Assembly (NCBI RefSeq): GCF_001017655.1
Contig: NZ_CP010904.1
Span: 1,860,001 to 1,892,000, forward strand
From: Kiritimatiella glycovorans
GTDB lineage: Bacteria; Verrucomicrobiota; Kiritimatiellia; Kiritimatiellales; Kiritimatiellaceae
DNA: 32,000 nucleotides
Direction of reading: 5' to 3'
Shown here in pieces: positions 1-31,830 of the stretch (the first letter of the stretch is position 1; each line of letters starts with the position of its first letter). The notes beneath the pieces were generated by a model. That model was not told the origin of the DNA. It did not search any database and saw nothing but the letters and a program-made list of their open reading frames with translations. A program made the translations under genes and the position numbers.

Positions 1-41
1 CACCGTCAAGGCTGCCTGCCTTCTCAAACGGACACGCGCAT

Positions 42-1337
42 TCATGATCTCTGCGCCTCTTCACAACCTGACAGCAGGTAACGCCAGGCGGGAATGGAGT
101 TGGGTTCGGCCTCGGACAAACCCGGCGCATACTCGTGGTAAACCAGGTGTCCCCGTGCCTCGGGCCAAAGGGTCCTTCCGAACTCCATGACGTTCTTCTC
201 GCGCTCGAATGCGGCATCGTCGGCCAGGCTCCAGCACGTGTTCGCAAACCAGGCGCCCTCGCCGTCGCACAGGTCGACTTCATGAGCATTCGAGTAGTAG
301 TAGAGGTCCCGACGGCGTCGGCGAGCCTCCAGAAAGACGGCCGTCTCCAGCTTGTGGCCGACGTCGCGCTGGGGGTATGCCTTGAAAGCCGCGACGAGAC
401 CGGGGTCGATCACATGCAACTTCTTGGGATTGTGCTCCTGCTTGCGCAACGACTCGTCGCGTTTCGGCACCATGAAGACCAGAGACGCATCCTTCAGGCA
501 GCCGAGGTACTCGTGCAGCGTGTTCTTCGACACCGCCAACCCCAGCGATTTGAAGTCACGGTGTAGCTTGCTGACGTTGATCAGCGATGCCGTGTTCCGA
601 AAGCAGTACCTTAACAGGGTTCGCATGACCTTCTCGTTCCGTACTCCATAACGCTCGACCACGTCCCTGAACAACATGAGCGAGGCGTACTCCTCCAGGA
701 TCAAGGGGCGCAGCGGCGCCTCGGCGAGCACGATCTCGGGGAAGCCGCCCCATGTCAGATACTCGACAAGCTCCGCGCGCGCGCGGCTCTCGTCGCGAGC
801 GCTGAACGAGGATATCTCCACCTCTCGAAACGAGAGAAACTCCCTGAAGCTCAGGGGAAACACCTCCAACGTGATGCTGCGTCCCCGCATTGCGGCAGAC
901 AGGTCGCGGGCCAGAAGCCGGGAGGACGAACCGGTAACAAAGATCGATATATCCTCGGTATCTTTAAGCCGCCTGACCCAACGCTCCCAGCCGGGTACGT
1001 CCTGCACCTCGTCCAGAAAGAGGTAGGTCTTGCCGGAGGCCGTATCGGGGTACAACTCGTTCAGGCTGCGAAGCACAAGATCCAGTTCTTCGGCGCGCAC
1101 GGGGTGCAGGCGATCATCCTCGAAGTTCAAGTACACGAGCTGTCGCCGGTCCACGCCTTGCCGGACGAGCCGGTGCATGGCGTCGAACAGCAGGAACGTC
1201 TTTCCGGAGCGGCGCGGCCCCGAAAGCCCCACCACTTTGCCGGTGTCCGCCGGGAGAGATCTATCGCGAGGACGACAAACCGGCAATTCGCCTTCGATGA
1301 ACTGGCGCAACACATACTTCAGATTGTAACTGTTCAT
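42..1337 (-). CDS. AAA+ ATPase of the AAA_14/DUF4143 type
   Basis: 431-aa ORF with ATG at 1337. Walker A GPRRSGKT and Walker B-like YLFLDEVQDVPGWERW, with a long C-terminal region as in DUF4143 ATPases. Confidence 0.8.
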   Translation of the reverse strand: MNSYNLKYVLRQFIEGELPVCRPRDRSLPADTGKVVGLSGPRRSGKTFLLFDAMHRLVRQGVDRRQLVYLNFEDDRLHPVRAEELDLVLRSLNELYPDTASGKTYLFLDEVQDVPGWERWVRRLKDTEDISIFVTGSSSRLLARDLSAAMRGRSITLEVFPLSFREFLSFREVEISSFSARDESRARAELVEYLTWGGFPEIVLAEAPLRPLILEEYASLMLFRDVVERYGVRNEKVMRTLLRYCFRNTASLINVSKLHRDFKSLGLAVSKNTLHEYLGCLKDASLVFMVPKRDESLRKQEHNPKKLHVIDPGLVAAFKAYPQRDVGHKLETAVFLEARRRRRDLYYYSNAHEVDLCDGEGAWFANTCWSLADDAAFEREKNVMEFGRTLWPEARGHLVYHEYAPGLSEAEPNSIPAWRYLLSGCEEAQRS

Positions 1338-1496
1338 AGCGACAATATAGATACTCCCGTCCCTTTATGCAAGGACAATCTCGCATCTCGTTGGCCATTT
1401 GCGGCTTCGCCGCGTCATCGGTCATGGGTATCCCATTCCGGGCCGTTTCCTTTGTGGGCCTCTCACTCATTCAATCGCACTCCCATATCCTCCCAC

Positions 1497-1517
1497 CATT
1501 GGCCAATGACCAATGAC
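1497..1517. repeat. short TTGGTCA/TGACCAA heptamer patch
   Basis: ccattggccaatgaccaatgac read directly, with palindromic core CATTGGCCAATG. Same unit as the larger arrays below. Confidence 0.6.
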
Positions 1518-1612
1518 GGCCGCGCAGCCTGCCCGCATTGCCCGCCCGCAACGCTGGCGCGTAGCGACTGCGGGCAGGCTCCGCAAAGCGATGTAGGCGG
1601 GCGGCCAAATGA

Positions 1613-2071
1613 CTACTGATTACACTCCCGGCAAACACCCAGCACGGTGATCCGGTGCGCTCGCTGCTTGAAACCCGCCTTGCGGCAGGCGATGGCGATG
1701 CGCTGGTGGATCTTGGGGTCGAGGAACTCGATGAACTTCCCGCACTGCTCACAGATCAGGTGCTCATGGTCTTCGAATCCCAGGGTCCGGTCGTAGTGCA
1801 CCTCGCGACCGGCTTCGCGGATCTCGCGCAAGAGACCGGCACGAACCATCAGGCCCAAGGTCTGGTACACGGTGCCACGGCTCACACGGGCCGGGCCGGC
1901 ATTGCTCAGATCCATGGCAAGCTCCTCGGCCGTGAAATGGCCGTCGCCTCTGAACACGCGATCGCAAACAATCCGGCGTGGCTGAGTGACCCGCAGACCC
2001 GACTCATCCAGGTAGTTGCCGAACACGAGCCAAGCCTTGCCCGTGGTCAATGGGTTTTTCTGCCCTGCCAT
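1613..2071 (-). CDS. Fur-family metal-responsive transcriptional regulator (Fur/Zur type)
   Basis: Winged-helix segment VSRGTVYQTLGLMVRAGLL, then HEHLICEQCGKFIEF and C-terminal GVCRECN metal sites typical of Fur proteins. ATG at 2071 (MAGQKNPL) follows GGAGAAGAGAGG; the ORF-track start at 2089 is GTG. Confidence 0.9.
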   Translation of the reverse strand: MAGQKNPLTTGKAWLVFGNYLDESGLRVTQPRRIVCDRVFRGDGHFTAEELAMDLSNAGPARVSRGTVYQTLGLMVRAGLLREIREAGREVHYDRTLGFEDHEHLICEQCGKFIEFLDPKIHQRIAIACRKAGFKQRAHRITVLGVCRECNQ

Positions 2072-2120
2072 CCTCTCTTCTCCGCGCACTGCCTGGGGGC
2101 AACGTGCCTCCTATTCAGAC

Positions 2121-2160
2121 CAGATCTAAAGAATGATTCAGTAACGTGTTAGTGAAGACA
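2121..2160. promoter_or_regulatory. AT-rich divergent promoter region with a possible Fur-type box
   Basis: Locally AT-rich cagatctaaagaatgattcagtaacgtgttagtgaagaca between the divergent Fur-family and ferredoxin genes. Contains the near-palindrome GAATGATTC. No scoring was possible. Confidence 0.25.
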
Positions 2161-2251
2161 AACTCGGCCATGGAGATCTACGGTATTGGTGTTGCGGCAA
2201 GGTGCGACGCTCGCATCGTGCCGGCAGCAACAACCCGAAGGAGGTACCATC

Positions 2252-2422
2252 ATGGCCTACAAGATATCGGATGAGTGTACTGCTTGCGGTTCCTGCAAGG
2301 ACGTCTGCCCGGTTGAGGCGATCAAGGAAGGTGACCCCAAGTACACGATCGACCCGGACATCTGCACCGACTGCGGAGCCTGCGAGGCCGAGTGCCCCGT
2401 CGAGGCGATCAGCGCGGGCTGA
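2252..2422 (+). CDS. 2x[4Fe-4S] ferredoxin (56 aa)
   Basis: MAYKISDECTACGSCKDVCPVEAI...DICTDCGACEAECPVEAISAG carries two CxxCxxCxxxCP motifs. SD GAAGGAGG lies 7 nt upstream of the ATG at 2252. Confidence 0.9.
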   Translation: MAYKISDECTACGSCKDVCPVEAIKEGDPKYTIDPDICTDCGACEAECPVEAISAG

Positions 2423-2444
2423 AGCCAAACCACGGAAAGTCGTG

Positions 2445-2482
2445 AGCGCCGACGCCCTCACGGGTGCCGGCGCTTTGCTTTT
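2445..2482 (+). terminator. candidate intrinsic terminator after ferredoxin
   Basis: AGCGCCGACGCCC-tcac-GGGTGCCGGCGCT imperfect hairpin followed by ttgctttt. It lies between convergent genes. Confidence 0.45.
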
Positions 2483-2496
2483 CCACAAAGTCGCAG

Positions 2497-3447
2497 TCAC
2501 TCTTCGCGGCTTCCTTGCGACTGCCCTTCCCCTGATGCCGTCGTCTGCAGTGTCAGTTCGCTAAAGCCGAAACGGTGCCGGAGCTCCTTTGCGAGTTGAT
2601 CCGTGATCTCGGTGCAATCCGTCACGCGAACGCCTTCCGCCATGACCAACTCGGCCGTGAAGGCGGTGACATCGTCCGTGATCGACCAGATCCTGACACG
2701 CTTGAGGCTCTCCACCTGCGGGCATTCGGCCGCGACAAAACGCTCGACGTCAGCAGTCGTGATGCGGCTCGGAGCAATCTCGAGCAGGATGCGGGAGGTA
2801 TCCCGGAAAAGCCCCCACGCCCACGCGAGAATCACCATCGCGATACCGATACTGAGGAGGGGGTCGATCCAGGTCCAGTCCGTGACGGCAATCACCAGTG
2901 CGCCAATCACGATGACGACGGACGACACGGTATCGGCCGCCATGTGCACGAGCGCACTCCGGACGCTGATGTTCTTACCGTGGCCATGAAGCAGCAGGAT
3001 GCTGGCGACGTTGACGGCGAGGCCGATCGCTGCAACGACAAGCATCTCCCGCGTTAGCACCTCCTGCGGATTGAGCAGCCGCGCCACGCCCTCGTAGGCG
3101 ATCGTCGCAGTGACGGCGAAGAGGAAGAGCGCATTGGTGTATGCCGCGAGCACTTCGGCCCGCAGCAATCCGAACGTGCGGTGATGGCACGGCTTTGATG
3201 ACGCCATGCGCAGGGCAATCGCGCTGATGCCCAAGGCGAAGACGTGCGTGAACATGTGGCCGGCATCGCTGAGCAGCGCCAGGCTGCCGGTCAGCAGGCC
3301 GCCCACGATCTCGATCGCCATGCCCGTCACCGTAATCGCCATCGACCACAACAGGCGCGCCTGCGAAAGGGAGCGGTACTGCAGGAGTTCATCCATCCCT
3401 CCAGCATGCGTGTGGCGATCCGATTCATGAGTGCGTCCCGTCGTCAT
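2497..3447 (-). CDS. cation diffusion facilitator (CDF) family metal exporter (CzcD/ZitB-like)
   Basis: 316 aa with six hydrophobic segments. TM2 LSDAGHMFTH and TM5 HMAADTVSS form the H-D/H-D site. His-rich N-terminus and a C-terminal cytoplasmic domain. Confidence 0.9.
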   Translation of the reverse strand: MTTGRTHESDRHTHAGGMDELLQYRSLSQARLLWSMAITVTGMAIEIVGGLLTGSLALLSDAGHMFTHVFALGISAIALRMASSKPCHHRTFGLLRAEVLAAYTNALFLFAVTATIAYEGVARLLNPQEVLTREMLVVAAIGLAVNVASILLLHGHGKNISVRSALVHMAADTVSSVVIVIGALVIAVTDWTWIDPLLSIGIAMVILAWAWGLFRDTSRILLEIAPSRITTADVERFVAAECPQVESLKRVRIWSITDDVTAFTAELVMAEGVRVTDCTEITDQLAKELRHRFGFSELTLQTTASGEGQSQGSREE

Positions 3448-3569
3448 GGCTTCACCCGTGAAGGGGAGAGGGGGCAGTCATTGCTTTCGATTCCGCTGAT
3501 GAGCCTCGGCGGTGGGGCGCTGGCCCCATTTGAAGAATCGTCCTCATAGTCCCTATGGTCTACAGTTTC

Positions 3570-3800
3570 TCAGTGGTCGTCTTCGCAGGTCTCCTCCTGA
3601 TCATTGCCGTCATTCTTTGTCGCGGTTGGCTTGCATGCTCCATGGTCGCAGCCGTCGTGCAACTCTGTCTGTGCGGCGTCGGGCTCGCCCCTCGCTATGA
3701 CGATGCGGTACACAGCGGCAGCGGCAACTGCGGCGGCCAGGATGATGATTACGATGCGGGGCCATAGGGCGGATGGCTTGGTGCTTCTTCCTTCTGTCAT
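3570..3800 (-). CDS. small single-pass membrane protein with Cys/His-rich tail
   Basis: ATG at 3800 preceded by GGAG. One TM (IVIIILAAAVAAAAVY), then HDGCDHGAC and CEDDH. Sits between the lipoprotein and CDF genes. Confidence 0.45.
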   Translation of the reverse strand: MTEGRSTKPSALWPRIVIIILAAAVAAAAVYRIVIARGEPDAAQTELHDGCDHGACKPTATKNDGNDQEETCEDDH

Positions 3801-3853
3801 GTGTCGGCTCCTTACTATCGGTCGTTGGTGTAGTACCGGCTTCGACAAACCCA

Positions 3854-4243
3854 TCAGGAACCGTCCCGCAGTTCGGGGCCCTTACCTTCGCCGTAGGTCA
3901 GCAACAGGTAATCATGCAGGTCGTTCAGGAACTGATCGAACTCCCGTGCGGGCAGGTCCTTCCTGGGCCCCGTGAAACGCAGCACGGGTAGAAAGTCGTT
4001 CGGCATAGCCTTGAGCAGACTCTCGTTCAGCACGACCGAAACGGTATTGCTCCCCATCTCTACCATGATGTCCGCGTCCGCCTCGCGGCCAATCCGGATG
4101 CCATGACCTTCCGCAATGTGCTCGATCATGTGCGCGTGGCTGTGACCATGTCCGTGCTCTTCGTGGTGTACGTCCCGCCGACCGCAGCCGGCAAAGAGAG
4201 CCAGACACAACAGCAACAGGTGGCGGGGCTGGCGCCTTCTCAT
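3854..4243 (-). CDS. His-rich lipoprotein (putative periplasmic metal-binding protein)
   Basis: Signal peptide with lipobox LFAGC, then HHEEHGHGHSHAHMIEH. ATG at 4243. Confidence 0.6.
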   Translation of the reverse strand: MRRRQPRHLLLLCLALFAGCGRRDVHHEEHGHGHSHAHMIEHIAEGHGIRIGREADADIMVEMGSNTVSVVLNESLLKAMPNDFLPVLRFTGPRKDLPAREFDQFLNDLHDYLLLTYGEGKGPELRDGS

Positions 4244-4258
4244 GATGACATCCTTCTT

Positions 4259-4335
4259 CGTCAGTCATCGGTCATTAGTCATGGGTCATCGGTACCCTCT
4301 TGCCATTGACTAATGACTAATGACCAATGACCATT
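4259..4335. repeat. inverted pair of TTGGTCA-type heptamer arrays
   Basis: cgtcagtcatcggtcattagtcatgggtcatcggt ... ccattgactaatgactaatgaccaatgaccatt. The right arm supplies the last codons (MVIGH) and the TAG stop of the 4317..4940 gene. Confidence 0.85.
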
Positions 4336-4940
4336 CCCTCCGGCCGGGTGCGACTGATGTAATCCAGCATCCGCTCAATGGTCGCGGCCTGTTCCGTGAC
4401 CTTGGCCCTCAATTCCCCAACCGAGAGATCCTCCGTGGGCACGGTGCTGTCCGGTGGCGCAATATCAGTCAGGGAAACGTCACAGCGCGGTCTGATCGCA
4501 CTGAGACCGCGATGCAGGCAGGCATGCGCGACCGTCCTGCCCAACGTGAGCTTCTGCTCGCAGGGATCCGTGAGCAATCCCCAGAGGATCCCCGGAAGCT
4601 CGTAAGATTCCGCCGCAAGGCTGTCGAGGCGCTCCCGCACCGTGTCCAACGATGCCCGGGACACCCACGCCACTTCTTCCCGGAACTTGTCGTCCAAGAG
4701 ATGGCTGACTTCCCGGCTGAACTCGTTTTCATGATGGGCGCCCTGGTGCGCTGCCTGCAGCAGCAAGCCCCGGTCTTCGGCCAGGCGCGACCCAAAGCAA
4801 GGGCACGCGCGAGGGATCACGGCGTTTTCGAGTTCATCCGTACTCAGGCCGATCCCGAGCATGGTGCAGATCGACGTGCAATCCAGCTTCCAGATAGGAG
4901 TGCGCTTGCTTGGTTTCTCGCTATTCTGTTCCATTTCCAT
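4317..4940 (-). CDS. hypothetical protein, short paralog of the N-terminal domain of the DUF2325 protein at 29011..30180
   Basis: 207 aa. Shares IWKLDCTSICTMLG and GILWGLLTDP with IWSLDCIAICTVLG and GIMWALLTDP in the larger protein. Confidence 0.6.
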   Translation of the reverse strand: MEMEQNSEKPSKRTPIWKLDCTSICTMLGIGLSTDELENAVIPRACPCFGSRLAEDRGLLLQAAHQGAHHENEFSREVSHLLDDKFREEVAWVSRASLDTVRERLDSLAAESYELPGILWGLLTDPCEQKLTLGRTVAHACLHRGLSAIRPRCDVSLTDIAPPDSTVPTEDLSVGELRAKVTEQAATIERMLDYISRTRPEGMVIGH

Positions 4941-4952
4941 GTCCAGTTATCC

Positions 4953-5012
4953 TTGGTCATTGGTCATTGGTCATTGGTCATTGGTCATTGGTCATCAGTC
5001 ATCGGTCATTGG
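4953..5012. repeat. tandem TTGGTCA heptamer array (about 8.5 units)
   Basis: ttggtca x6, then tcagtca, tcggtca, ttgg. Fills the 54-nt gap between the ICMT-like gene stop (4995) and the next gene start (4940). Confidence 0.9.
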
Positions 5013-5477
5013 CGACTTCCGCCGCGCGTATGGCAGAATCCGCGCCACGCGTTTCGAGTAGTCTCGGTACGCTTCGCCGTATTTCTCTGCAAGCCATGCC
5101 TCCTCGCCGGGCAGCACAAGCCGCAGCACGACATACATGATGAACGGGATCGCCAGGAGCAGCGGGTTGCGGAAGAACAGGACGAAGCCCGGCACGAGAA
5201 ACAGAATCCACGCCGCGTAGATCGGGTTGCGGCAGAGGGCGAAAACACCGCTCGTGCAGAGCGTCTCGGCCTGGTGCGCCTTTCTCAGCGTGATAGCGGA
5301 GATGAACCAGAACGGAATGCCGGCCAGCAGGATCGCGATGCCCGCGCCATAGAACCACCACGGTGAAATGGCTGTCACCACCAGCGATTCGCGGAACACG
5401 GCCGCGCAGACGACCACCGGCGCGGACGCCAGCAGGCTCCAGAGCAACCACTTGCCGCCTATTCCCCAAACCGTCAT
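4995..5477 (-). CDS. ICMT/PEMT-family membrane methyltransferase
   Basis: 160 aa, multi-pass. Motif region GVFALCRNPIYAAWILF...PGEEAWLAEKYGEAYRDY is typical of the isoprenylcysteine carboxyl / phospholipid methyltransferase family. Confidence 0.8.
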   Translation of the reverse strand: MTVWGIGGKWLLWSLLASAPVVVCAAVFRESLVVTAISPWWFYGAGIAILLAGIPFWFISAITLRKAHQAETLCTSGVFALCRNPIYAAWILFLVPGFVLFFRNPLLLAIPFIMYVVLRLVLPGEEAWLAEKYGEAYRDYSKRVARILPYARRKSPMTDD

Positions 5478-5490
5478 CTCTTTTCCTTCT

Positions 5491-5603
5491 GTCGGTCATA
5501 TGCGGCTGCGCCGCCGTCATTGGTCATTTGCGCCTGCGGCGCGTCATTGGTCATCAGTCAATGGTCAGTGGTCGGAACAACCAATGACTAATGACCAATG
5601 ACA
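5491..5603. repeat. inverted TTGGTCA heptamer arrays with embedded GC stem
   Basis: gtcattggtcatcagtcaatggtcagtggt-cggaacaa-ccaatgactaatgaccaatgac. Supplies VIGH plus the TAG stop of the ABC gene ending at 5588. Confidence 0.85.
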
Positions 5604-7342
5604 TTCTCACTGATGCTCCATCCGGCGGATTCCTGTTGCAGCTTCCACATCCGTGCGTAGAGCCCGTCCACCGCCAGCAATTCCTCATGGGTTCCCGACT
5701 CGGCGATGGCGCCCTTGTCGAGCACGATGATCCGGTCGGCGCGGCAGATGGTCTTCAGGCGGTGTGCAACCACGATCACCGTGCGACCTTCAATCAGGCG
5801 ATCGATCGCCTTCTGCACGTCCCGCTCGTTCTCCGGGTCGAGCGAGGCAGTCGCTTCGTCCAGAAGCACGATCGGCGCGTTCTTCAGGAACGCACGGGCA
5901 ATGGAGATACGCTGCTTCTCGCCGCCCGAGAGAGTGCACCCGCCTTCGCCGACCGGTGTGTCGTACCCTTGCGGCAGAGCAGCAATGAACTCGTGACAGC
6001 AGGCTGCCTTCGCCGCTTCCACGACCTCCTCGTCGGTTGCGCCTTCCCGGCCGAAGCGGATGTTGTTGCGAATCGTATCCTGGAAGAGATAGACGTCCTG
6101 GAAGACCATGGACAGACGGCGGAACAGTCGCTCGGGATCCATGCCGGTCATGGGTTCCCCGCCAAGGCGAACCGTCCCCTCGCCCGGATCGTAGAAACGG
6201 GCCGCCAGCTTGAGCATGGTGCTCTTGCCGCTGCCGGAGGGACCGACCAGGGCGGTGAGGGTTCCCGGCTCCATCCGCGCCGAAACACCATGCAACACCG
6301 GTTCGTCGTGGTAGCCGAACGAGACGTTGTCGAACTCGATATCCGCGGACTCCGGAGGCGCTTGCGTTCCGTCCATCTCCGGTTCGCGGTACAGGTTCAG
6401 GATGCGTTCGCCCGCCTGCTCGCTGTAGCGGACCAGGGCGAACTGCATGAGAGCCAGCGTCAGCGGATCGAAGATGCGCGAGCCGACGATCAGGAACGCG
6501 ACGAAGACGAGCAGATCCAACGTTCCGCCGATCAGCAGATGCACGCCCACCAGCACCATGATCGTCAGTCCCGCGCGCATGCAGGCGATGGCGAGCATGA
6601 GGAAAGGTCCGACCCATCCTTCCAGCCGGATGCTCTGTTTCATCAACTCCCGGAATGACATCTCAAGGCGCGCGAAGCGCGTGCCGGTCAAGTTGTAGGC
6701 CTTGATGACGCGGATGCCGTACAGGTACTCCTGCAGGCGGTTCCCGGCGTCGATCTTGGCGCGCATGTGGCGGCGGCCAAGGGCGCGGACGATCTTTGTC
6801 GAACCCGCGAAGATCACCAGCGCCACCGGCAACGCCGAGAACATGGCAACGGCCATGCGCCAATCCAGAAAGGAGAGACCAATCACCGCCAGAACGGGCA
6901 TGACCAGTGCGCCGATCAGTTGCGGCACGAAATGCGAAACGCTCTGCTCAAGCAGTGCAAAATCGCCCATCAGCATGTTCGCGAGATTCCCCGGGTCACG
7001 TCCGGTGAGGTAGCCCAGCGGCAATTTGCGCAGATGCTCGGCCAGTTCCGTCCGCCCCTCCGCCGACACGGAATAGGCCTGACGGAAGCAGGCCCGGTAA
7101 GCCGGGCGTTCGGCCAGGAAAATGAAGGGAAGCGAGACCGCCAGGGCGGCGCATGTCCACCAGAGGCTTGCCGTATCCAGCGGGGCGCCGGACGCGTATG
7201 CGCCGAAGATCGTTCGCACCGCCTGAAGCGCCAGCACGAAGGGAATCAGATTGACCAGGTTGGACAGAAGGACGAACGCAACCGGCTTCCGCAGCTTGTC
7301 GGGATGACCGACGGTCACATGATTCAGAAATCGGGCGATCAT
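5588..7342 (-). CDS. ABC transporter, fused permease/ATPase (exporter-type half transporter)
   Basis: True start MIARFLNH at 7342 (ATGA overlap with the upstream stop). Six-TM domain, Walker A GPSGSGKST, signature LSGGEKQR, Walker B VLLDEATS, H-loop VAHRL. Confidence 0.9.
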   Translation of the reverse strand: MIARFLNHVTVGHPDKLRKPVAFVLLSNLVNLIPFVLALQAVRTIFGAYASGAPLDTASLWWTCAALAVSLPFIFLAERPAYRACFRQAYSVSAEGRTELAEHLRKLPLGYLTGRDPGNLANMLMGDFALLEQSVSHFVPQLIGALVMPVLAVIGLSFLDWRMAVAMFSALPVALVIFAGSTKIVRALGRRHMRAKIDAGNRLQEYLYGIRVIKAYNLTGTRFARLEMSFRELMKQSIRLEGWVGPFLMLAIACMRAGLTIMVLVGVHLLIGGTLDLLVFVAFLIVGSRIFDPLTLALMQFALVRYSEQAGERILNLYREPEMDGTQAPPESADIEFDNVSFGYHDEPVLHGVSARMEPGTLTALVGPSGSGKSTMLKLAARFYDPGEGTVRLGGEPMTGMDPERLFRRLSMVFQDVYLFQDTIRNNIRFGREGATDEEVVEAAKAACCHEFIAALPQGYDTPVGEGGCTLSGGEKQRISIARAFLKNAPIVLLDEATASLDPENERDVQKAIDRLIEGRTVIVVAHRLKTICRADRIIVLDKGAIAESGTHEELLAVDGLYARMWKLQQESAGWSISENVIGH

Positions 7343-9144
7343 GCGGATTCCCCCTGTCGAAAGGCCCACATCGACGCATCGCTGTACGTGTCCCACATGC
7401 GCTTGTAGAGTCCGCCTCCCTTGAGCAACGCCTCGTGTCGCCCTTGTTCCACGATACGGCCTTGCTCCAGAACGACGATCCGGTCCGTATGGCGAACGGT
7501 CGACAAGCGGTGCGCGATCACGATGACGGTCTTGTTCCGGATCAGTTCCCGCAACGCCACGTGCATCTTGTGCTCGTTCTCCGGATCGGCAAACGCCGTC
7601 GCTTCGTCCAGTACGAGGATGGGCGCATCCTTCAGGATCGCACGGGCCACGGACACGCGCTGCTCTTCGCCGCCGGAGAGGTACACGCCACCCTCGCCGA
7701 TTTTCGTGTCGTACCCGCTCGGCAGGCGCGCGATGAAGTCGTGGCACTGTGCCGCCCGGGCCGCGGCCTCGACCTCTTTGCGGCTGGCGCCGGGCCGGCC
7801 GATGCGGATGTTCTCGAACAGGGAGTCATAGAACAGAAACGTGTCCTGGAACACGAAGGACACCGTGTTCATCAGGTCTTCCCCTCGCATCTCGCGGATG
7901 TCCACGCCACCGATGCGAATGCGGCCTTCGGACACGTCCCAGAACCGCGGGATCAGGTTGGCGACAGTCGACTTACCCGACCCCGACGGGCCGACCAGTG
8001 CGGTGATGCCGCCCTGGGGCGCGCGGAACGAGATGGCACTGAGCGCCTCCGTCCGCGTCGAGGCGTCGGGCGCGTCGTAGGAGAAGGAGACGCCGTCGAA
8101 CTCAACGTCGTACCCTTCGGGCCGCCGGGACTGCGCCGGCTCCACGGTTTCGGGCTCGGAGAAGATGGCGTCGATCCGGCTGACGCCTTCGCCGATGTCC
8201 TTGAGAAGCGACGACATGAAGAGCAGCTTGTAGAGCGGCGCGGCCGTGCCGGGCGTCATGACAAGGAAGAAGAGGACCGTCAGCGCCAGGGCCATGTTCT
8301 GCGGTTCTCGGCTCAAGAGCAGGGCGCCTACCGGCAGCACAAACGTCAGAAAAGAGGCCAGGATCGTCTTGTACGCGATGTAGCCATTCTGAAAGGAATC
8401 GGTCCACGCGGTGACCATATCGCGATAGCGGATCATGTCGCCGTGGAAGCGCCGGAAGGAGCGGACCGTCTGGCCGAACAGCTTCACCGCCGGCATCCCG
8501 CGTACATACTGGATAGCGGACGCGTTGATGTTCTCGAGCGCGTCGTGATACTTGGCCATCATCTCCCTGGCGCCCTCGCCAAACATCATCGATGCCTGAA
8601 CGGCCACGCCGGCCAGGAGGGCCAGCACGCAGACCAGCGCCATCCATCCGTTCAGCCAGAACATGACGGCAAACATTACGACAACCGTAGCCGCAACGCC
8701 GACGAGGTCCGGGACTTGGTGCGCGACAAAGCTCTCGATCTTCTCCACGTTCTGTTCGAGCGTCTTCTTCACCGCCCCAGTGGATGTGCGGGAGAGATAC
8801 CCCAGATGCAGCTTGCCAATGTGATTCGCCAACCGCACGCGCAGACCGTAGAGGATGCGGAACGCCGCAACGTGCGAGGCCATCAAGCTGACGTAGAGCA
8901 CCACGAACCCCGCAACCAACCCGCCCAGGGCGATCCATCCCCACCGCGCCATGAGCGCGCCGTCGGCCTGCGCGGGCGCTCCCGCATGGCGCAGGAGTTC
9001 GGCCAATATGAAGTAGACCGCCAAGTATGGAACAAGCATGAGGATGGAGCTGACGGCCGAGAGCGCGCAGGAGAGAACGAGCAACCCCTTGCGCTCGCCC
9101 GCGATCTCAAGCAGCCTTCCCACGCCTTCGGGTTTCTTCTTCAT
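7339..9144 (-). CDS. ABC transporter, fused permease/ATPase (exporter-type half transporter)
   Basis: True start MKKKPEGV at 9144 (ATGA overlap). Walker A GPSGSGKST, signature LSGGEEQR, Walker B LVLDEATA, H-loop IAHRL. Confidence 0.9.
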   Translation of the reverse strand: MKKKPEGVGRLLEIAGERKGLLVLSCALSAVSSILMLVPYLAVYFILAELLRHAGAPAQADGALMARWGWIALGGLVAGFVVLYVSLMASHVAAFRILYGLRVRLANHIGKLHLGYLSRTSTGAVKKTLEQNVEKIESFVAHQVPDLVGVAATVVVMFAVMFWLNGWMALVCVLALLAGVAVQASMMFGEGAREMMAKYHDALENINASAIQYVRGMPAVKLFGQTVRSFRRFHGDMIRYRDMVTAWTDSFQNGYIAYKTILASFLTFVLPVGALLLSREPQNMALALTVLFFLVMTPGTAAPLYKLLFMSSLLKDIGEGVSRIDAIFSEPETVEPAQSRRPEGYDVEFDGVSFSYDAPDASTRTEALSAISFRAPQGGITALVGPSGSGKSTVANLIPRFWDVSEGRIRIGGVDIREMRGEDLMNTVSFVFQDTFLFYDSLFENIRIGRPGASRKEVEAAARAAQCHDFIARLPSGYDTKIGEGGVYLSGGEEQRVSVARAILKDAPILVLDEATAFADPENEHKMHVALRELIRNKTVIVIAHRLSTVRHTDRIVVLEQGRIVEQGRHEALLKGGGLYKRMWDTYSDASMWAFRQGESA

Positions 9145-9698
9145 GATTCGTCTCCGCCTTCGGTAGATTGCTCGAATCGCAGGCGCGCGATGCGCGGGGC
9201 AATGCGGGACCGGATAAAGGGCAGGCGGACAATGCAGAGGCCTTCGGCAATCAGTAGAACCGGGCGGCCGGCATCGTCGACCTTCTCCATCCATTCCGTA
9301 TCGAACACCGAAGCGGTGAGGAAGCGGTAGCGATCGGTCTCCTCGAAGAAGCGGCGCCGGAGTTCCAGAGACTCGGCCAGGTCCGGTTCATACCAGTCCG
9401 TCTCGACGCCAAGGCGATGGCGGCGCGTATCCAGGCCAGCGCCAAGATTCACCACCACGCCGTCGGGATTGCGCCGCAGAAAGTCGCTCGTCGCCCGATC
9501 CAGAAGCATGGTGCGGATGGCGACGCCGAGTTGAGAAAGACGGGCCTTGGCGAACTTGGCGAAGTCATACTCGATTTGCCGCACCATCTCGGCCGCCTTG
9601 TCGTCGCGCACGATGGGGTCGGGCTCCTCGCCCTCGACGGCCCGCGCCCACAGGGGGATAAGGAGTGTCTCAGGGATGCCGCTTAGTTTTGCGGTCAT
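9141..9698 (-). CDS. class I SAM-dependent methyltransferase of the LCM/TcmP-like family, apparently C-terminally truncated
   Basis: GIPETLLIPLWARA, VVNLGAGLDTR and LLIAEGL motifs. The family-like sequence stops after LLIAEGL, at about residue 153 of 185. Confidence 0.7.
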   Translation of the reverse strand: MTAKLSGIPETLLIPLWARAVEGEEPDPIVRDDKAAEMVRQIEYDFAKFAKARLSQLGVAIRTMLLDRATSDFLRRNPDGVVVNLGAGLDTRRHRLGVETDWYEPDLAESLELRRRFFEETDRYRFLTASVFDTEWMEKVDDAGRPVLLIAEGLCIVRLPFIRSRIAPRIARLRFEQSTEGGDES

Positions 9699-10207
9699 TC
9701 TTGATCCCTCCCTTGTTCAGGCGCATAGTCGCGTATACCGCGTTCCCGGGCCGTGTCGTCCGCCACTTCGTCCTGCCAGCCGGAACGGACGTTTTCGCGG
9801 AGGTCATAGCGGGCAATGAAGGGCTTGATGTCCAGGAGAGGCGTTCCATCGAGGATGTCGACATCCTCGACGTGCAGCGTGGTCCCTTCGACCGAGAGCA
9901 GGCGCACGACGCTGAATCCGATATGGTTGGGGCGGAACGGGGCGCGCGTGGCAAACACGCCGCGTTCCTGATCCTGCAGGTACGGACGGACCCGAAGCTT
10001 CACCTTGTCCGCGCGGTCAAAGCGATAAACCAGGTAAATATGAGAAAAACCTTCCAGGTCGAGGAGACCGTCTGCATACCTCTCCTCTACCGTGACCGTG
10101 CCGCGTATGCCCCTGGCGAAGACCGGCTGAATCGGCGTTTCTTTCGGTTTTCTGTGAGGGGAATGAATATGTCCGATGGGTTCTATGGTGTATCGTCCGG
10201 TGCTCAT
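9695..10207 (-). CDS. TsaA/TrmO (YaeB, UPF0066) family SAM-binding protein
   Basis: IGHIHSP...FSHIYLVYRFD...GVFATRAPFRPNHIGFSVVRL...DILDGTPLLDIKPF. ATG at 10207 with an ATGA overlap. Confidence 0.85.
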   Translation of the reverse strand: MSTGRYTIEPIGHIHSPHRKPKETPIQPVFARGIRGTVTVEERYADGLLDLEGFSHIYLVYRFDRADKVKLRVRPYLQDQERGVFATRAPFRPNHIGFSVVRLLSVEGTTLHVEDVDILDGTPLLDIKPFIARYDLRENVRSGWQDEVADDTARERGIRDYAPEQGRDQE

Positions 10208-10845: not shown

Positions 10846-10927
10846 GAGCGATCCTTTGTTTCCATCATCTTCCTTTTTTTTTCAAAGTCTTCCGCAAAAC
10901 GAGACCAATACGTCTCTTTCTCCATCG

Positions 10928-11962: not shown

Positions 11963-11987
11963 GTTCGCATCTCTCTCCCTCGGTGGG

Positions 11988-12052
11988 CATGGTCAGTAGT
12001 CATCGGTCATCAGTCATTGGCGTGCCCGCCAGCTCCCAATGCCCAATGACCC
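11988..12052. repeat. inverted TTGGTCA-type heptamer arrays between two operons
   Basis: catggtcagtagtcatcggtcatcagtcattgg ... cccaatgcccaatgaccc, between the lipoprotein stop (12083) and the O-methyltransferase start (11962). Confidence 0.8.
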
Positions 12053-12082
12053 TCCGTCACTCTCCGAGCTATGGAGGGCACG

Positions 12083-12484
12083 CTATTGACCAGTATCATT
12101 CGCGATCGACGGTGCATTCGCGATCGAGGAGTCCCAGAAGACGGTCGCCAAGCCTTCGCGCGCCAGCCCGTCCCGGACCATGATGGTGTTGCCCCCGGTC
12201 CCGCGCGACGTATGCGTGTAGGTCGCCTTGTCGGCCGACTGCGCCACGATACTGCCCATGGACGAGTCGCTGACGGACCATTCGAGAGGATACACGATCG
12301 GTTCGGGATTCGTATCACCGATGGAGACGTCGGCCGTGAGGATCACGGTTTTCTCGTCGCCGGTCAGGGTTGTGGTGGCGGGCGTCACCGGCAGCTCGCC
12401 GCGGACCTCGTCGTCATCGGGCTCGCAACCCGCGCACAGCAATATAAGCGGTAGTATTATCAGAATCAGATGGTGTCGTTTCAT
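12083..12484 (-). CDS. lipoprotein with Ig-like (Big_2-like) beta domain
   Basis: Lipobox LLCAGC. VTPATTTLTG...WSVSDSSMGSI...GGNTIMV resembles bacterial Ig-like domains. ATGA overlap with the pilT stop. Confidence 0.6.
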   Translation of the reverse strand: MKRHHLILIILPLILLCAGCEPDDDEVRGELPVTPATTTLTGDEKTVILTADVSIGDTNPEPIVYPLEWSVSDSSMGSIVAQSADKATYTHTSRGTGGNTIMVRDGLAREGLATVFWDSSIANAPSIANDTGQ

Positions 12485-13587: not shown

Positions 13588-13614
13588 CTGTCATCTTCCC
13601 AAGGCTGTCGCGAA

Positions 13615-13691
13615 GATTCACCACGGAGACACGGAGACACAGAGAATTCGTCTCCTTGCTCCGCGCACTCTCCGTGCCTCTGTGGTTCAAC
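13615..13691. repeat. CACGGAG-type palindromic element (PAL-B)
   Basis: gattcaccacggagacacggagacacagag ... ctctccgtgcctctgtggttcaac, between the secretin stop and the pilT start. Confidence 0.85.
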
Positions 13692-15660: not shown

Positions 15661-15703
15661 ACTCATTCCCAATGCGTTATGCATGAACCGAGAAAGTCGG
15701 TTC

Positions 15704-15734
15704 AACCAATGACCAATGACTAATGACCAATGAC
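15704..15734. repeat. TGACCAA heptamer array
   Basis: aaccaatgaccaatgactaatgaccaatgac directly after the PilP-like gene stop. A GAACCGA-gaaag-TCGGTTC hairpin lies at 15685-15703. Confidence 0.85.
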
Positions 15735-15737
15735 TCT

Positions 15738-16223
15738 TCATCGGTATATCCTCACATCCTGCGGCCGGGTGCGCGGCGCGATTTCGATTTGACTGGCGGT
15801 CACCGATTTCACCAGCAGGTATAACTGCGCATCGGTCGCCCCCGCGGCGGCGCCGCCTCCGGCGGCACGGTCCACCTGAACGATGTCGCCTTCGCGGACG
15901 AAGTAGAGGTTCTTCACGCCGGGGATGGATATCGCACCCACTGGCTCTTTGCCGGCCACGGCCAGAATTCCCACTACGCGGATGCCTGGCGGAAGCGCGG
16001 CAGGTCCGGCGCTGACGAAGCCTTCGTCATCCGTCAGCCCCCGCATCGCAAACGGGTCGCCGGTCGGCATCCGGGGCGGAGGCGTAACCTCCGCCGCGGC
16101 GGTTCCCGCCGGCGCAGCCTTCTCTACCGCATTCGTCGCGACGCCAGCGGACACGCCGTCCTGCGCCATCGCCGGAACGGCAACGGCCCCCCATAGCCAC
16201 AGAAACCATATCGCTTGTTTCAT
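15738..16223 (-). CDS. PilP/GspC-like periplasmic pilus-assembly protein
   Basis: ATG at 16223 (MKQAIWFLWLW) with GGAG 7 nt upstream. Signal peptide, Ala/Pro linker, then the beta domain IRVVGILAVAGKEPVGAISIPG..YFVREGDIV. Confidence 0.5.
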   Translation of the reverse strand: MKQAIWFLWLWGAVAVPAMAQDGVSAGVATNAVEKAAPAGTAAAEVTPPPRMPTGDPFAMRGLTDDEGFVSAGPAALPPGIRVVGILAVAGKEPVGAISIPGVKNLYFVREGDIVQVDRAAGGGAAAGATDAQLYLLVKSVTASQIEIAPRTRPQDVRIYR

Positions 16224-16231: not shown

Positions 16232-16277
16232 CCAATCACTATTGACCAATCACCAATGACTAATGACCAATGACCAT
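16232..16277. repeat. TGACCAA heptamer array
   Basis: ccaatcactattgaccaatcaccaatgactaatgaccaatgaccatg, between the GspF/PilC stop (16281) and the PilP-like start. Confidence 0.85.
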
Positions 16278-19951: not shown

Positions 19952-20329
19952 TCATAGAACCATCCGTTTGATGCCATGCTTGAGCACGGGAACATTGAAA
20001 TTGATAAGCAACCCGACTCTGCATCCGGTCAGCTTCATGTAGGTGAGCAATTGCGCTTCGTGAATGGGCTCCAGTTCCTTGACGGCCTTCAGTTCCACAA
20101 CCACTTTCCCGTGCACGACGAGGTCCAGGCGCAAGTCCTCGCCGACTCGCTCACCCTTGTACAGCAGGGGCAATCTCACCTGGGTCTCGGACGCTACGCT
20201 GCGAAGGCGCAACTCGTGGCATAGGCTTCTTTCGTAAATCTCCTCGTACAGACCGGGACCCCAGTGCTTGTGCACCTCGATGGCCGCCCCGATGATCTGC
20301 TCCGTCAGCTCTGCTTCCACCATGCCCAT
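19952..20329 (-). CDS. GxxExxY family protein
   Basis: 125 aa. [29 protein letters not shown] contains G-L-Y-E-E-I-Y. Length and LLINF.. C-terminus are typical of the family. GGAG SD upstream of the ATG at 20329. Confidence 0.85.
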
Positions 20330-23141: not shown

Positions 23142-23735
23142 TTACTCGTCGAACGTCAGTTGCCGTTTCAGCTCTTCGCGTTTCTCGGCGTTGAACCTCC
23201 CGCTGTTCGTGCTGGGGTACAGAAACAGGTTCGTGAATCCGGCGGACGGATAGTCGTTGCTCACCACCACCTCATACGGATCCCCATACGGGTCGAGCAA
23301 TGCGCGGTAGCCGGCAGCGTTGGTTCCTTCGGACACGGCATAGGGTCCGCGCCAGCCGCGGTTCTTCGCCAAGTCCCACTCTTCATAGCTAAAGAGCGAA
23401 GGTGAATTGGTGTCCGTTTGCGTCAGGAGCGGCGCGAGATCGACGGCGGCCCAGTCCGCCATGTTGGTTGGCCCTCCCGTAGCGAACTCGCAATGGTTGT
23501 AGAACCGGATGAACGTGCGCTGGATGTCGTACATCTCGCTCTGCACGACGGATTCCATCGATTTCTCCTTGTCGACTTTGAGCAAGGGGAGCATCAGGGA
23601 GGCCAGCGCGCCCAGCAGCCCGATCACGATCAACAGCTCGATCAGCGTGAAGCCGGAAGAGGCGCTTCGCGCCGTCATTGGCGATTGGTCATTCGTCATT
23701 CGTGAAGAGCCCAGTGCGTTTCGTGTCTTGTTCAT
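23142..23735 (-). CDS. GspG-like major pseudopilin / type IV pilin
   Basis: G|FTLIELLIVIGLLGALASLMLP, with GWRGPY and DPYGDPY as in GspG. The ATG at 23735 has GGAGG 7 nt upstream. Alternative ATG at 23678. Confidence 0.85.
   Translation of the reverse strand: MNKTRNALGSSRMTNDQSPMTARSASSGFTLIELLIVIGLLGALASLMLPLLKVDKEKSMESVVQSEMYDIQRTFIRFYNHCEFATGGPTNMADWAAVDLAPLLTQTDTNSPSLFSYEEWDLAKNRGWRGPYAVSEGTNAAGYRALLDPYGDPYEVVVSNDYPSAGFTNLFLYPSTNSGRFNAEKREELKRQLTFDE
23672..23704. repeat. TGACNAA heptamer array inside the prepilin leader-coding region
   Basis: The mRNA strand reads cacgaatgacgaatgaccaatcgccaatgacgg, encoding SRMTNDQSPMT. Confidence 0.75.
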
Positions 23736-24059: not shown

Positions 24060-24090
24060 CCAATGACTAATGACCAATGACTAATGACCA
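24060..24090. repeat. TGACCAA heptamer array
   Basis: ccaatgactaatgaccaatgactaatgaccag, ending 2 nt before the thioredoxin stop codon (24093). Confidence 0.85.
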
Positions 24091-24092
24091 GT

Positions 24093-26644: not shown

Positions 26645-26664
26645 TCTGTTCTTTCCTCTGTTTA

Positions 26665-26740
26665 CCGATGACCAATGACCAATGACCAATCACTAATGAC
26701 CCATGACGCGCCGCAGGCGCAAATGACCAATGACCAATCA
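26665..26740. repeat. TGACCAA heptamer arrays flanking a small GC stem
   Basis: ccgatgaccaatgaccaatgaccaatcactaatgacccatgac-gcgccgcaggcgc-aaatgaccaatgaccaatca. Confidence 0.85.
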
Positions 26741-28846: not shown

Positions 28847-28869
28847 CTTTTTTCGACCGCTGCGTTTGC

Positions 28870-29006
28870 GTCATTGGTCATTGGCCATTGGTCATTTGCG
28901 GGCTTCGCCCACAGTCATCAGTCATTGGCAGCCAACGGAAAGCAATGACCCGCAACCAATGACTAATGACCATTGACTACTGACCAATGACCAATGACTA
29001 ATGACC
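28870..29006. repeat. long inverted TTGGTCA heptamer arrays
   Basis: gtcattggtcattggccattggtcatttgcggg ... cccgcaaccaatgactaatgaccattgactactgaccaatgaccaatgactaatgacc, ending 5 nt before the DUF2325 gene stop. Confidence 0.85.
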
Positions 29007-29010
29007 TCCC

Positions 29011-31247: not shown

Positions 31248-31276
31248 CTCTGACTTCCTTTCTCGCTAGCTAGTTA

Positions 31277-31303
31277 TTTGTCATTGGTCATTAGTCATTC
31301 GTG
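31277..31303. repeat. TTGGTCA heptamer array in the flavodoxin 5' region
   Basis: tttgtcattggtcattagtcattcgtg, 30 nt upstream of the flavodoxin ATG. Confidence 0.8.
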
Positions 31304-31335
31304 CATCCATCTGACGAACAGGCTTTTTCCAACGT

Positions 31336-31642
31336 GGGTGGCTGATTGACTCAAATGACGGATGAACGGACGGGGAGCTTCACCACGGAGGCACGGAGAC
31401 ACAGAGAAGACTCCTCCGTTCCGTGCTCTCTTCCGGCCCAACCGTTGCGCGGATTTGCCACGGGGCGCGGTGGATCCTTGGGGCGGAAGTCTGTTTCCCA
31501 TCTGCCGCACGCCGTGGCAAATCCGCGCAACACACGGCGGGGAGGCGGCAGAGGAAGCTCCGCTGGCCCGCTCCCATCCGGAACTCCGTGCCTCCGTGTC
31601 TCCGTGGTGAATCCTCGCATCGCTTGAGTCAATCAGCCACCC
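31336..31642. mobile_element. MITE-like nested palindrome (outer 19-bp IR, PAL-B arms, inner 20-bp IR)
   Basis: gggtggctgattgactcaa (31336-31354) pairs with ttgagtcaatcagccaccc (31624-31642). PAL-B arms at 31378-31406 and 31583-31612. gttgcgcggatttgccacgg (31444-31463) pairs with ccgtggcaaatccgcgcaac (31512-31531). No target-site duplication was seen. Confidence 0.45.
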
Positions 31643-31672
31643 AGATTCCCCATTGCAAGAGGCGCTCCGTTC

Positions 31673-31830
31673 CGCCGCCGCCGCGAGTTTGCCGCCGCAC
31701 ATAGAGTGCGGCCAGACAAACTCATGGGGCCAAAAAACACGCCTGCGCCGTACCATGTCCTTTCCGCCTTTCATGTTCGTCGCGCCAAACATAATACGCC
31801 CCGCCGCACTCCGTCAAACGTTTTTTTCAC
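31673..31830 (-). promoter_or_regulatory. promoter plus conserved leader module, copy 2 (upstream of the flavodoxin operon)
   Basis: TTGACG at 31812-31817, TATTAT at 31791-31796, hairpin at 31685-31723. The 45-nt core is identical to copy 1. Confidence 0.55.

Follow-up and report, generated by a model that had tools for sequence, protein, structure and literature searches.

The 32,000-nt stretch of Kiritimatiella glycovorans studied here (contig NZ_CP010904.1, positions 1,860,001 to 1,892,000; hereafter the window) carries tandem arrays of the heptamer TTGGTCA at the junctions between its genes. The minus strand carries all real genes, as judged from an analysis of G+C content at third codon positions (GC3) and from Pfam and NCBIfam matches, and the arrays are therefore described in the sense of the mRNA: R for arrays that read TTGGTCA on the minus-strand transcript and F for those that read TGACCAA. 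With starts corrected, the window is 89% coding. Its genes encode Fur, a CDF transporter, a methyltransferase/TrmO/LCM/ABC-A/ABC-B cluster, a PEMT-like protein, a type II secretion system (T2SS)/type IV pilus operon (with E, F, secretin, PilT-like, and several pseudopilin genes), thioredoxin, DtxR, flavodoxin, and DUF2023. This gene content, including the pseudopilins, is like that of the Planctomycetes-Verrucomicrobia-Chlamydiae (PVC) group and not of a heterocystous cyanobacterium, the type of host known for repeats of the short tandemly repeated repetitive (STRR) type. The closest named relative of the T2SS-E protein, at 84%, is labeled 'Spartobacteria bacterium', and the next tier, at about 60%, belongs to Planctomycetota.

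An earlier note on this DNA had listed arrays at 12 positions, and Tandem Repeats Finder (TRF) returned period-7 arrays at all 12. Searching the window for two consecutive units (TTGGTCATTGGTCA) with at most 2 mismatches gave 40 matches, against 0.17 expected from dinucleotide-preserving shuffles, none of 100 of which reached 40. A phase-aware count, which leaves aside the degenerate pair at 11988-12052, came to 15 arrays with 61 units and 427 nt. The units stand head to tail, as in STRR sequences, and the copies are likewise dispersed and mainly intergenic (about 16 loci in 32 kb): 381 of the 427 array bases (89%) were non-coding, and the remaining 46 all fell within the last ≤18 nt of genes. 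TTGGTCA accounted for 26 of the 61 units and TTAGTCA for 11; the GTCA core was nearly invariant, with the variation in positions 1 to 3. In the focal array, at 4953-5008, the perfect units are followed by TCAGTCA and TCGGTCA, while the array at 5491-5574 is compound, broken by two 13-nt GC hairpins and assigned a period of 28 by TRF. The claim that a period of 7 against a codon of 3 makes the two orientations opposite in coding terms was also upheld, since (TTGGTCA)3 translates as LVIGHWS and has no stop in any frame, whereas within three units of the TGACCAA sense each frame has both a TGA and an ATG.

Three layouts recurred. In the first, a stop codon is followed after 0 to 5 nt by an R array, a ribosome-binding site (RBS), and a start codon (T2SS-F to the next gene; downstream of thioredoxin). 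In the second, an F array runs from the upstream stop to about 12 to 30 nt before the next ATG (4953-5008 and 31271-31299); the focal array leads directly into an AAGGA Shine-Dalgarno sequence and ends 12 nt short of the ATG of 4317..4940. The third consists of an R array, a loop, and an F array (4261-4334, 5540-5602, 28867-29008, 11988-12052, and 1391-1513). The coordinates of all arrays are collected in Table 1.

Reading of the genes confirmed the three array-encoded C-termini proposed previously: MVIGH-TAG for 4317..4940, VIGH-TAG for 5588..7342, and PMTDD-TGA for 4995..5477. In addition, the Fur stop codon TAG (1613-1615) lies within a GTAGTCA unit, the first unit of an array supplies the TGA of 31295..31792, and the C-terminus of the secretin (...ALGVRH*) is encoded by another heptamer array, GCGTTAG x3 at 13717-13739, which supplies its last residues and stop. 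These tails are secondary, because homologues end otherwise. Members of the ABC-B family end in ...GWSL(N/A/S), whereas the ABC-B protein of the window ends in ...GWSISENVIGH. A 94%-identical relative ends in ...GWSINESVIGQ and has retained a degenerate array at the same stop, while relatives at 88% and 80% identity lack such a tail. Similarly, the only homologue of the 207-aa protein (...RPEGMVIGH) has a different, longer tail, ...RPVPAGVQEDES. VIGH and VIGQ tails were also present in database proteins of relatives.

The picture was different at the 5' ends. Since the R sense is free of stops, longest-ORF (open reading frame) calls run through the arrays, and several of the apparent invasions of 5' ends proved to be artefacts of such calls: the true start of pseudopilin 25808 is an ATG near 26643, after the RBS GAGGAAAG, and that of gene 15738 is the ATG at 16223. 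False TTG starts and inflated ORFs were seen at 13717-15741, 25808-26689, and 15738-16235, and constitute an annotation hazard. Two genes do appear to carry array sequence near their starts. In pseudopilin 23142, the N-terminal region reads ...ATGACCAATCGCCAATGAC-GGCGCGAAGCGCC-TCTTCCGGC|TTCACGCTGATCGAG; a nested hairpin encodes TARSA of the short leader MTARSASSG|FTLIELL, for which a relative has MKTYRTTHG|FTLMEML, and the ATG and short leader were probably supplied by the last array unit (~23680). In the secretin ORF, the ancestral ATGA-coupled start is kept, and about 66 extra in-frame codons, made of three arrays, precede the signal-peptide core, so that the protein has 674 aa in the window (13717-15741) compared to 605 and 608 aa in two relatives and 646 aa in a third (L124). 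Within this 5' extension, at 15555-15665, an (ATGTTCG)5.6 array stands opposite an inverted 14-mer array, (CAACATCGAACGTC)3, and the two fold together (-51.6 kcal/mol, z -7.3).

The earlier note had also proposed that four inverted pairs could form hairpins. All four were present and folded as RNA (free energies, dG, in kcal/mol; z relative to shuffles). The three strongest, at 4255-4340 (dG -38.3, z -6.6), 5540-5605 (dG -36.1, z -8.3), and 28865-29010 (dG -77.1, z -8.2), form stems of about 18 to 40 bp that no shuffle matched. The pair at 11985-12080 was the weakest of the four (z -3.2), and a further pair, at 1385-1520, was indistinct from shuffles (z -1.3). Unpaired tracts behaved differently: the single F tract at 4945-5015 was essentially unstructured (dG -1, z +1.65, i.e., less structured than shuffles), and a single R tract folded like shuffles. 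All five inverted pairs in the window have the polarity 5'-(TTGGTCA)n...(TGACCAA)n-3'. No terminator-like site was found at any array in a search of positions 1 to 20000, and no T run follows the stems; an identity as intrinsic (Rho-independent) terminators was therefore rejected. An Rfam search of the window returned no family.

Table 1. Heptamer arrays, nested mini-hairpins, and octamer hairpins in the window (R, TTGGTCA sense; F, TGACCAA sense)
Feature	Position	Strand	Context
Compound array TTGGCCA-TTT-(GC mini-hairpin 1401-1413)-GTCA-TCGGTCA	1391..1430	+	F sense; Fur to ATPase intergenic region
R units at 1500-1513 and GTAGTCA unit with Fur stop	1497..1620	-	90-nt GC-rich insert 1518-1608 between them
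4-unit array	4261..4288	+	F-sense 3' arm of inverted pair; just upstream of RBS/start of 3854..4243
4-unit array	4307..4334	-	R-sense 5' arm of pair; encodes MVIGH + TAG of 4317..4940
Focal array, 8 units (6 perfect)	4953..5008	+	F sense; contains PMTDD-TGA of 4995..5477
Compound array with two nested GC mini-hairpins	5491..5574	+	F sense; 3' part is an inverted-pair arm
R-sense arm	5580..5602	-	Encodes VIGH + TAG of ABC transporter gene 5588..7342
Degenerate inverted pair	11988..12052		Between last T2SS-operon gene (12083..12484) and O-methyltransferase gene
R-sense array	15703..15730	-	5 nt past stop of 15738..16223; inside over-extended secretin ORF 5' end
R-sense array, 5-6 units	16236..16277	-	Fills gap from T2SS-F stop (TAG, 16281) to next gene RBS/ATG (16223)
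F-sense array + mini-hairpin 23661-23673	23661..23705	+	Encodes ...MTNDQSPMTARSASSG just before G|FTLIELL prepilin motif
R-sense array	24060..24091	-	Starts 1 nt past thioredoxin stop (TGA, 24093)
Compound R-sense array, mini-hairpin 26708-26720	26662..26737	-	Upstream of RBS and true ATG (~26643) of pseudopilin gene
F-sense compound arm, mini-hairpin ~28900-28910	28867..28935	+	3' arm of longest inverted pair
R-sense arm, 7 units	28955..29008	-	Starts 3 nt past DUF2325 gene stop (29011)
F-sense array	31271..31299	+	First TGA is stop of 31295..31792; 29 nt upstream of flavodoxin ATG
Mini-hairpin	1401-1413		GC-only, 5-bp stem
Mini-hairpin GCGGC-TGC-GCCGC	5502-5514
Mini-hairpin GCGCC-TGC-GGCGC	5530-5542
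Mini-hairpin GGCGC-TTC-GCGCC	23661-23673
Mini-hairpin GCGCC-GCA-GGCGC	26708-26720
Mini-hairpin GGGC-TTC-GCCC	~28900-28910		4-bp stem
Octamer hairpins	13622-13700, 19653-19927, 20361-20383, 21793-21857, 23029-23052
Octamer hairpins	23957-24000, 27864-27934, 30254-30324, 31384-31606, 31861-31883

Six GC-only mini-hairpins are nested within the heptamer arrays, five with a 5-bp stem and a 3-nt loop and the sixth with a 4-bp stem. Read in the F sense, their loops are GAA or GCA; GNA triloops with a C-G closing pair are classic, very stable DNA mini-hairpins. All were found at one and the same unit junction (F sense, TGAC-hairpin-A(A/T)A-TGACCAA), and GCGCCGCAGGCGC is identical at 5530-5542 and 26708-26720. 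A 90-nt GC-rich structured insert (1518-1608; dG -57.1, z -2.4) occupies this junction as well. The composite of array and nested mini-hairpin was also found in a Verrucomicrobiota metagenome-assembled genome (L060), a metagenome contig (L160) carries five nested mini-hairpins in one array, and a Nostoc locus (L048) has a 30-nt hairpin inserted after the TGAC of a unit. On L160 (Ga0180435_10166357, positions 940-1600), a four-helix-bundle gene (TIGR02436, 2e-24) lies between R and F compound TTGGTCA arrays that both contain nested GC mini-hairpins, and its tail TNDQ* is array-encoded; the contig also has an ExbB/TolQ gene whose end, ...LVIGQ*, falls inside an array.

The earlier note had suggested comparison with orthologous loci. 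The proteins nearest to those of the window were 87 to 94% identical, none of them from strain-level relatives, and three relatives (L124, L125, and L126) have T2SS operons whose T2SS-E is 84 to 87% identical to that of the window. The arrays of the window were absent from the orthologous junctions of all three. Expressed as gaps in nt between neighboring genes, with negative values for overlaps, the junction from pilin to hyp456 measures 0 to 2 in the relatives and 123 in the window, where it holds an octamer hairpin (a second repeat family, treated below); from hyp456 to hyp235, -4 against 715 (octamer hairpins and a GxxExxY gene); from T2SS-F to the next gene, 17 to 82 against 57 (a 42-nt R array); from that gene to the secretin, -4 against about 177 to 200 nt of arrays (TTGGTCA and ATGTTCG); from secretin to PilT, -17 to +30 against 129 (the GCGTTAG array at the stop and an octamer hairpin); and from the last gene to its neighbor, 19 to 93 against 120 (an R...F pair). 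Array-free junctions were the same in the window and the relatives (-4, -1, and -4). The R array between T2SS-F and the next gene (16236..16277) was not present in any of the three orthologous operons, and one example of a relative's junction, GATAGAAGAAAGGAATGAGCAAATG, contained no proto-unit. Because genes of the related operons overlap or stand 0 to 21 nt apart (82 nt in one relative) at the array-bearing junctions, the arrays represent lineage-specific insertions; by this comparison of sequences, they are recently gained. The relatives have arrays of their own: L126 carries a TTGGTCA array at another place than the window, and an array that the window lacks precedes ABC-A (L122; the 94%-identical ABC-B relative, besides its array at the ABC-B stop). 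No arrays accompany ABC-B in the relatives at 88% and 80% identity. Of the features expected of miniature inverted-repeat transposable elements, R...F arms resembling terminal inverted repeats and empty orthologous sites were seen; no target-site duplication was recognizable, the flanks having diverged.

Three arrays coincide with synteny breakpoints relative to L124, L125, and L126, namely 11988-12052, 31271-31299 (before flavodoxin), and 5491-5602 (after ABC-B). The last T2SS gene is followed by the O-methyltransferase cluster in the window, by flavodoxin in L125, and by another methyltransferase in L124, and what lies downstream of ABC-B is different in each relative. Either recombination between dispersed arrays or the joint arrival of arrays and inserted genes would be compatible with these coincidences. 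The O-methyltransferase/methyltransferase/LCM/ABC-A/ABC-B cluster itself (5588-11962) is a conserved block in two distant contigs (L121 and L123), where it lies beside TetR and prophage genes, and homologues 64 to 76% identical to its ABC-B occur in Desulfarculus, Brevibacillus, and Paenibacillus, pointing to a biosynthetic or export island that is horizontally mobile.

The second repeat family consists of three tandem octamers, (CACGGAGR)3, a loop, and (YCTCCGTG)3, forming hairpins in many intergenic regions (Table 1). The octamer family (CACGGAGG) was absent from 120 genome loci with (TTGGTCA)3 and from the loci of six relatives, including their orthologous junctions. The stretch 19653-19927 holds 2.2 tandem copies, at 99% identity, of a 123-bp unit made up of two octamer arms around a 60-nt loop. 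At 19905-20383 (minus strand), octamer hairpin arms enclose a GxxExxY/PD-(D/E)XK gene (19952..20329; TIGR04256, 1.3e-44; PF13366, 1.7e-43); in all three relatives, the two genes on either side of this insertion overlap by 4 nt. This layout resembles that of a gene for a REP-associated tyrosine transposase (RAYT) flanked by repetitive extragenic palindromic (REP) sequences.

To see how far the heptamer extends, (TTGGTCA)3 was scanned for in one genome per GTDB species, giving at least 120 loci whose proportions reflect scan order. Among the matches listed, at least 76 loci were cyanobacterial, mostly from Nostocales and Oscillatoriales; at least 22, from at least 19 genomes, were from PVC hosts (Pirellulales, Planctomycetaceae, Gemmataceae including Zavarzinella and Frigoriglobus, Isosphaeraceae, Phycisphaeraceae, Verrucomicrobiota, and Victivallales); at least 13 were from Bacteroidota; and single genomes belonged to Polyangiaceae, Hyphomicrobiales, Acidobacteriota, Gemmatimonadota, Desulfobacterales, and Sericytochromatia. 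Complete chromosomes with arrays include those of Nostoc sp. C117 and Calothrix NIES-2100. (TTGGTCA)3 also occurred in 33 IMG/VR contigs (L127-L159), some with several arrays. The earlier note had called the PVC-like context of the window unexpected, should TTGGTCA be a cyanobacterial STRR unit. An exceptional standing of this context was not supported, because many PVC genomes carry these arrays, as do Bacteroidota, Acidobacteriota, Gemmatimonadota, and others. In contrast, the link that it had drawn to cyanobacterial heptamer repeats is borne out by the cyanobacterial loci and by an eightfold GAC(C/T)AAT tract in Nostoc PCC 7120; cyclically permuted, the unit of this tract is TGACCAA/TGACTAA, and it shows the C/T variant also seen in the window.

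The orientation rules held beyond the window. Convergent R...F pairs outnumbered F...R pairs 30:6 over all loci (binomial p ~7e-5, the loci not being fully independent), with 20:2 in cyanobacteria, 5:2 in PVC, 2:1 in other phyla, 0:1 in Bacteroidota, and 3:0 in the window with a strict caller. Outside the window, arrays within 80 nt upstream of long ORFs were F in 61 cases and R in 21 (43:15 in cyanobacteria, 11:4 in PVC, and 7:2 in Bacteroidota), while after stop codons R was weakly preferred (48:34). At the PVC loci, arrays were intergenic and often started -18 to +30 nt from a stop codon. We found no RAYT or Y1 transposase in the window or between any R...F pair in 160 loci. A general link to a gene family was rejected. 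The ORFs between arrays 150 to 1500 nt apart were ordinary housekeeping genes. When the GxxExxY protein of the window was searched by tblastn against 159 loci plus the window (~1.3 Mb), there was one unrelated match, and the four-helix-bundle protein of L160 had no match in 160 loci plus the window (~1.3 Mb).

STRR-type heptamers have been used for decades for fingerprinting of cyanobacteria, and TTGGTCA is reportedly the unit of one of the three STRR families of Mazel et al. (1990). A text search of the literature for TTGGTCA as an STRR unit returned primer sequences only and did not confirm the label, and a search for heptamer repeats in Verrucomicrobia and Planctomycetes found no paper describing such arrays in PVC bacteria. 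For cyanobacterial 7-bp STRR hairpins between genes, an effect on transcript stability or coupling has been proposed (PMC2670836). In Nostoc 7120, GAC(C/T)AAT x8 overlaps the start codon of recO, the same heptamer is found upstream of at least 13 genes, and deletion of the (GACCAAT)8 tract altered recO reporter activity (bioRxiv 10.1101/2022.06.06.494920). Another heptamer, TAACTGA, forms arrays a short way upstream of start codons in Beggiatoaceae, cyanobacteria, and Bacteroidetes; their forward sense is stop-rich and their reverse sense translatable, and horizontal spread by a mechanism not known has been suspected (MacGregor 2015, PMC4679880).

With cyanobacterial STRR sequences, the arrays of the window share the 7-nt unit TTGGTCA and its TTAGTCA variant, dispersed intergenic placement, inverted pairs forming hairpins between co-transcribed genes, stops and starts inside arrays, the R...F polarity, and the F sense before starts. 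They differ in host, a PVC bacterium of about 62% GC as opposed to a low-GC filamentous cyanobacterium, and in having 13- to 15-nt GC-only GNA-loop hairpins and a co-existing octamer hairpin family. TAACTGA repeats are similar in forming intergenic arrays of 2 to tens of units a few nt before starts, in their stop-full forward and translatable reverse senses, and in their patchy cross-phylum distribution; however, the unit is another one, only 1 indirect repeat was found in 170, whereas a third of the window arrays are paired, and no PVC hosts were reported (PMC4679880). With REP sequences, bacterial interspersed mosaic elements (BIMEs), and REP doublets forming hairpins (REPINs), all of proteobacteria, the arrays share short intergenic repeats after stops in operons, inverted doublets with stable hairpins (the five R...F pairs), and lineage-specific copy number. 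REPs, however, are unique single palindromes of 20 to 40 nt, mobilized by RAYT (Y1) proteins and marked by a GTAG-type 5' motif, while the arms in the window are tandem heptamers with variable unit number, and no RAYT linked to them was found in the window. Finally, the small dispersed repeats (SDRs) of Nostoc punctiforme are reportedly hairpins of tens of nt inside other repeats (Elhai et al., 2008). The Nostoc hairpin of L048 sits at the same point of the unit as the mini-hairpins of the window, which are shorter and GC-only, with GAA or GCA loops.

Together, these results favor the view, to which we give a probability of roughly 55%, that the arrays are a PVC-lineage case of the STRR-type heptanucleotide repeat, i.e., a non-coding, fast-turnover element that seeds at gene junctions and has REP-like effects on mRNA. 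We infer that an array would arrive at a junction as a single tract or as the convergent module 5'-(TTGGTCA)n-loop-(TGACCAA)n-3' and that its unit number would then expand and contract by slipped-strand mispairing, for which we counted the six identical units at 4953-4994 compared with the degenerate arrays elsewhere. The tracts could subsequently become landing sites for small GC-rich hairpins. Selection would retain the copies that spare genes, lying between a stop and the next RBS or overlapping only the last few codons. Since the TTGGTCA sense is open in all frames, it could fuse to C-termini as ...VIGH or ...VIGQ until a TTAGTCA variant provides TAG, while the TGACCAA sense terminates any incoming frame and is the one preferred before start codons.

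At the RNA level, paired arrays would act as inter-cistronic, REP/BIME-like stem-loops on polycistronic mRNA and not as terminators. E. coli REP/BIME elements stabilize upstream mRNA. As the stems are long, lack a U-tract, and lie inside operons, such an effect is the most likely molecular consequence, whether as a barrier that stalls 3'-5' exonucleases or as a substrate cut by RNase III, and cistrons that were formerly translationally coupled may be uncoupled by the stems. Single TGACCAA tracts would instead provide stop-saturated, structure-free leaders.

Three points weigh against this view. Neither a transposase nor another mobilizing gene was found in association with the heptamer arrays, nor was a target-site duplication visible. 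Neutral slippage alone hardly accounts for the same heptamer, TTAGTCA variant, polarity, and sense relative to genes in at least four phyla, and these identities hint at a shared trans-acting factor. Lastly, the secretin ORF is open and in frame across about 200 nt of repeats, and the array peptide may be translated and selected.

An alternative that we regard as unlikely, though the best of those considered, is that the arrays are cis-regulatory platforms for a sequence-specific RNA- or single-stranded-DNA-binding protein (e.g., of the cold-shock, S1, or CsrA type), with one protomer per heptamer. By binding (UGACCAA)n in 5' leaders, such a protein would set the translation or stability of a dispersed regulon, much as argued for TAACTGA (MacGregor 2015, PMC4679880). 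The threefold excess of the F sense before starts in cyanobacteria, PVC, and Bacteroidota fits this proposal, as do the structure-free tracts ending 0 to 30 nt before an ATG, the unit and variant common to distant phyla, and the change in expression upon tract deletion (bioRxiv 10.1101/2022.06.06.494920). However, orthologous junctions in the 84 to 87% relatives do without arrays, the genes served are unrelated (ABC transporter, methyltransferases, pilins, flavodoxin, and Fur), equally many arrays lie in the opposite sense after stops, half are locked in long stems, and the window yielded no candidate for the binding protein.

A bolder idea, to which we assign a lower chance still, is that TTGGTCA arrays, GNA-loop mini-hairpins, and loop-borne small genes form one horizontally spreading, cross-phylum system with shared machinery recognizing the GTCA heptad. 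That machinery would be a nuclease or recombinase acting on hairpin DNA or would involve RNase III-type excision as in rRNA intervening sequences. Two small genes were seen in inverted-pair loops, the four-helix-bundle gene of L160 between heptamer arms and the GxxExxY gene of the window between octamer arms.

It is also doubtful, and a shade more so, that the arrays arose independently by slippage in situ at stop/start junctions (TGAnnnATG, in 7-nt steps), the shared heptamer then being a convergence. In TGACCAA+TG, a stop does overlap with a start (ATGA), which is the motif of coupled genes; several arrays start exactly at a stop codon, and the GCGTTAG (13717-13739) and ATGTTCG (15563-15601) arrays are at gene ends as well. 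Slippage of this kind, however, leaves unexplained the reverse-sense arrays and the R...F polarity, the identical variant spectrum in Nostoc and the window, and the identical nested-hairpin composite in different contigs, and the junctions of relatives lack a proto-unit. The shared unit, variant, polarity, and insertion point across phyla argue against pure convergence.

Very improbable, in our estimate, are contingency (phase-variation) tracts, in which gain or loss of units would shift the frame at sites such as the secretin N-terminus and pilin leaders and thereby vary surface structures. T2SS/type IV pilus genes have several arrays at their flanks, the secretin ORF, from its conserved ATGA coupling start on, remains in frame across three arrays, and a perfect 6-unit tract is prone to slip. 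Yet most arrays are non-coding or touch only the last 2 to 6 codons, where a frame change is nearly harmless, and the neighbors of arrays also include housekeeping and metabolic genes in the window and genes for ribosomal proteins in cyanobacteria; among the closest proteins (87 to 94% identical), no strain-level relatives were found. An assembly or sequencing artefact has a negligible chance: although contigs often break in such repeats (MacGregor, PMC4679880), the arrays have individual variant patterns and unique flanks, reading frames and RBSs are intact, and arrays recur in isolate genomes, including the complete chromosomes mentioned above.

The PVC bacteria are thus a new host group for a known heptamer repeat, which is not unique to the source genome. 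Measured against compact orthologous operons, the repeats separate coupled genes and rewrite C-termini, stops, and probably even a prepilin leader, and their open orientation inflates ORFs and lets VIGH and VIGQ tails enter protein databases. The same unit, polarity, and sense in Planctomycetota/Verrucomicrobiota-type genomes and in other phyla turn a cyanobacterial curiosity into a comparative problem, in which proteins that accompany the arrays across phyla can be sought. If arrays, mini-hairpins, and loop-borne genes should be one system, the 35-year-old question of the nature and spread of STRR sequences would become answerable by phylogenetic profiling across cyanobacteria, PVC, and Bacteroidota.

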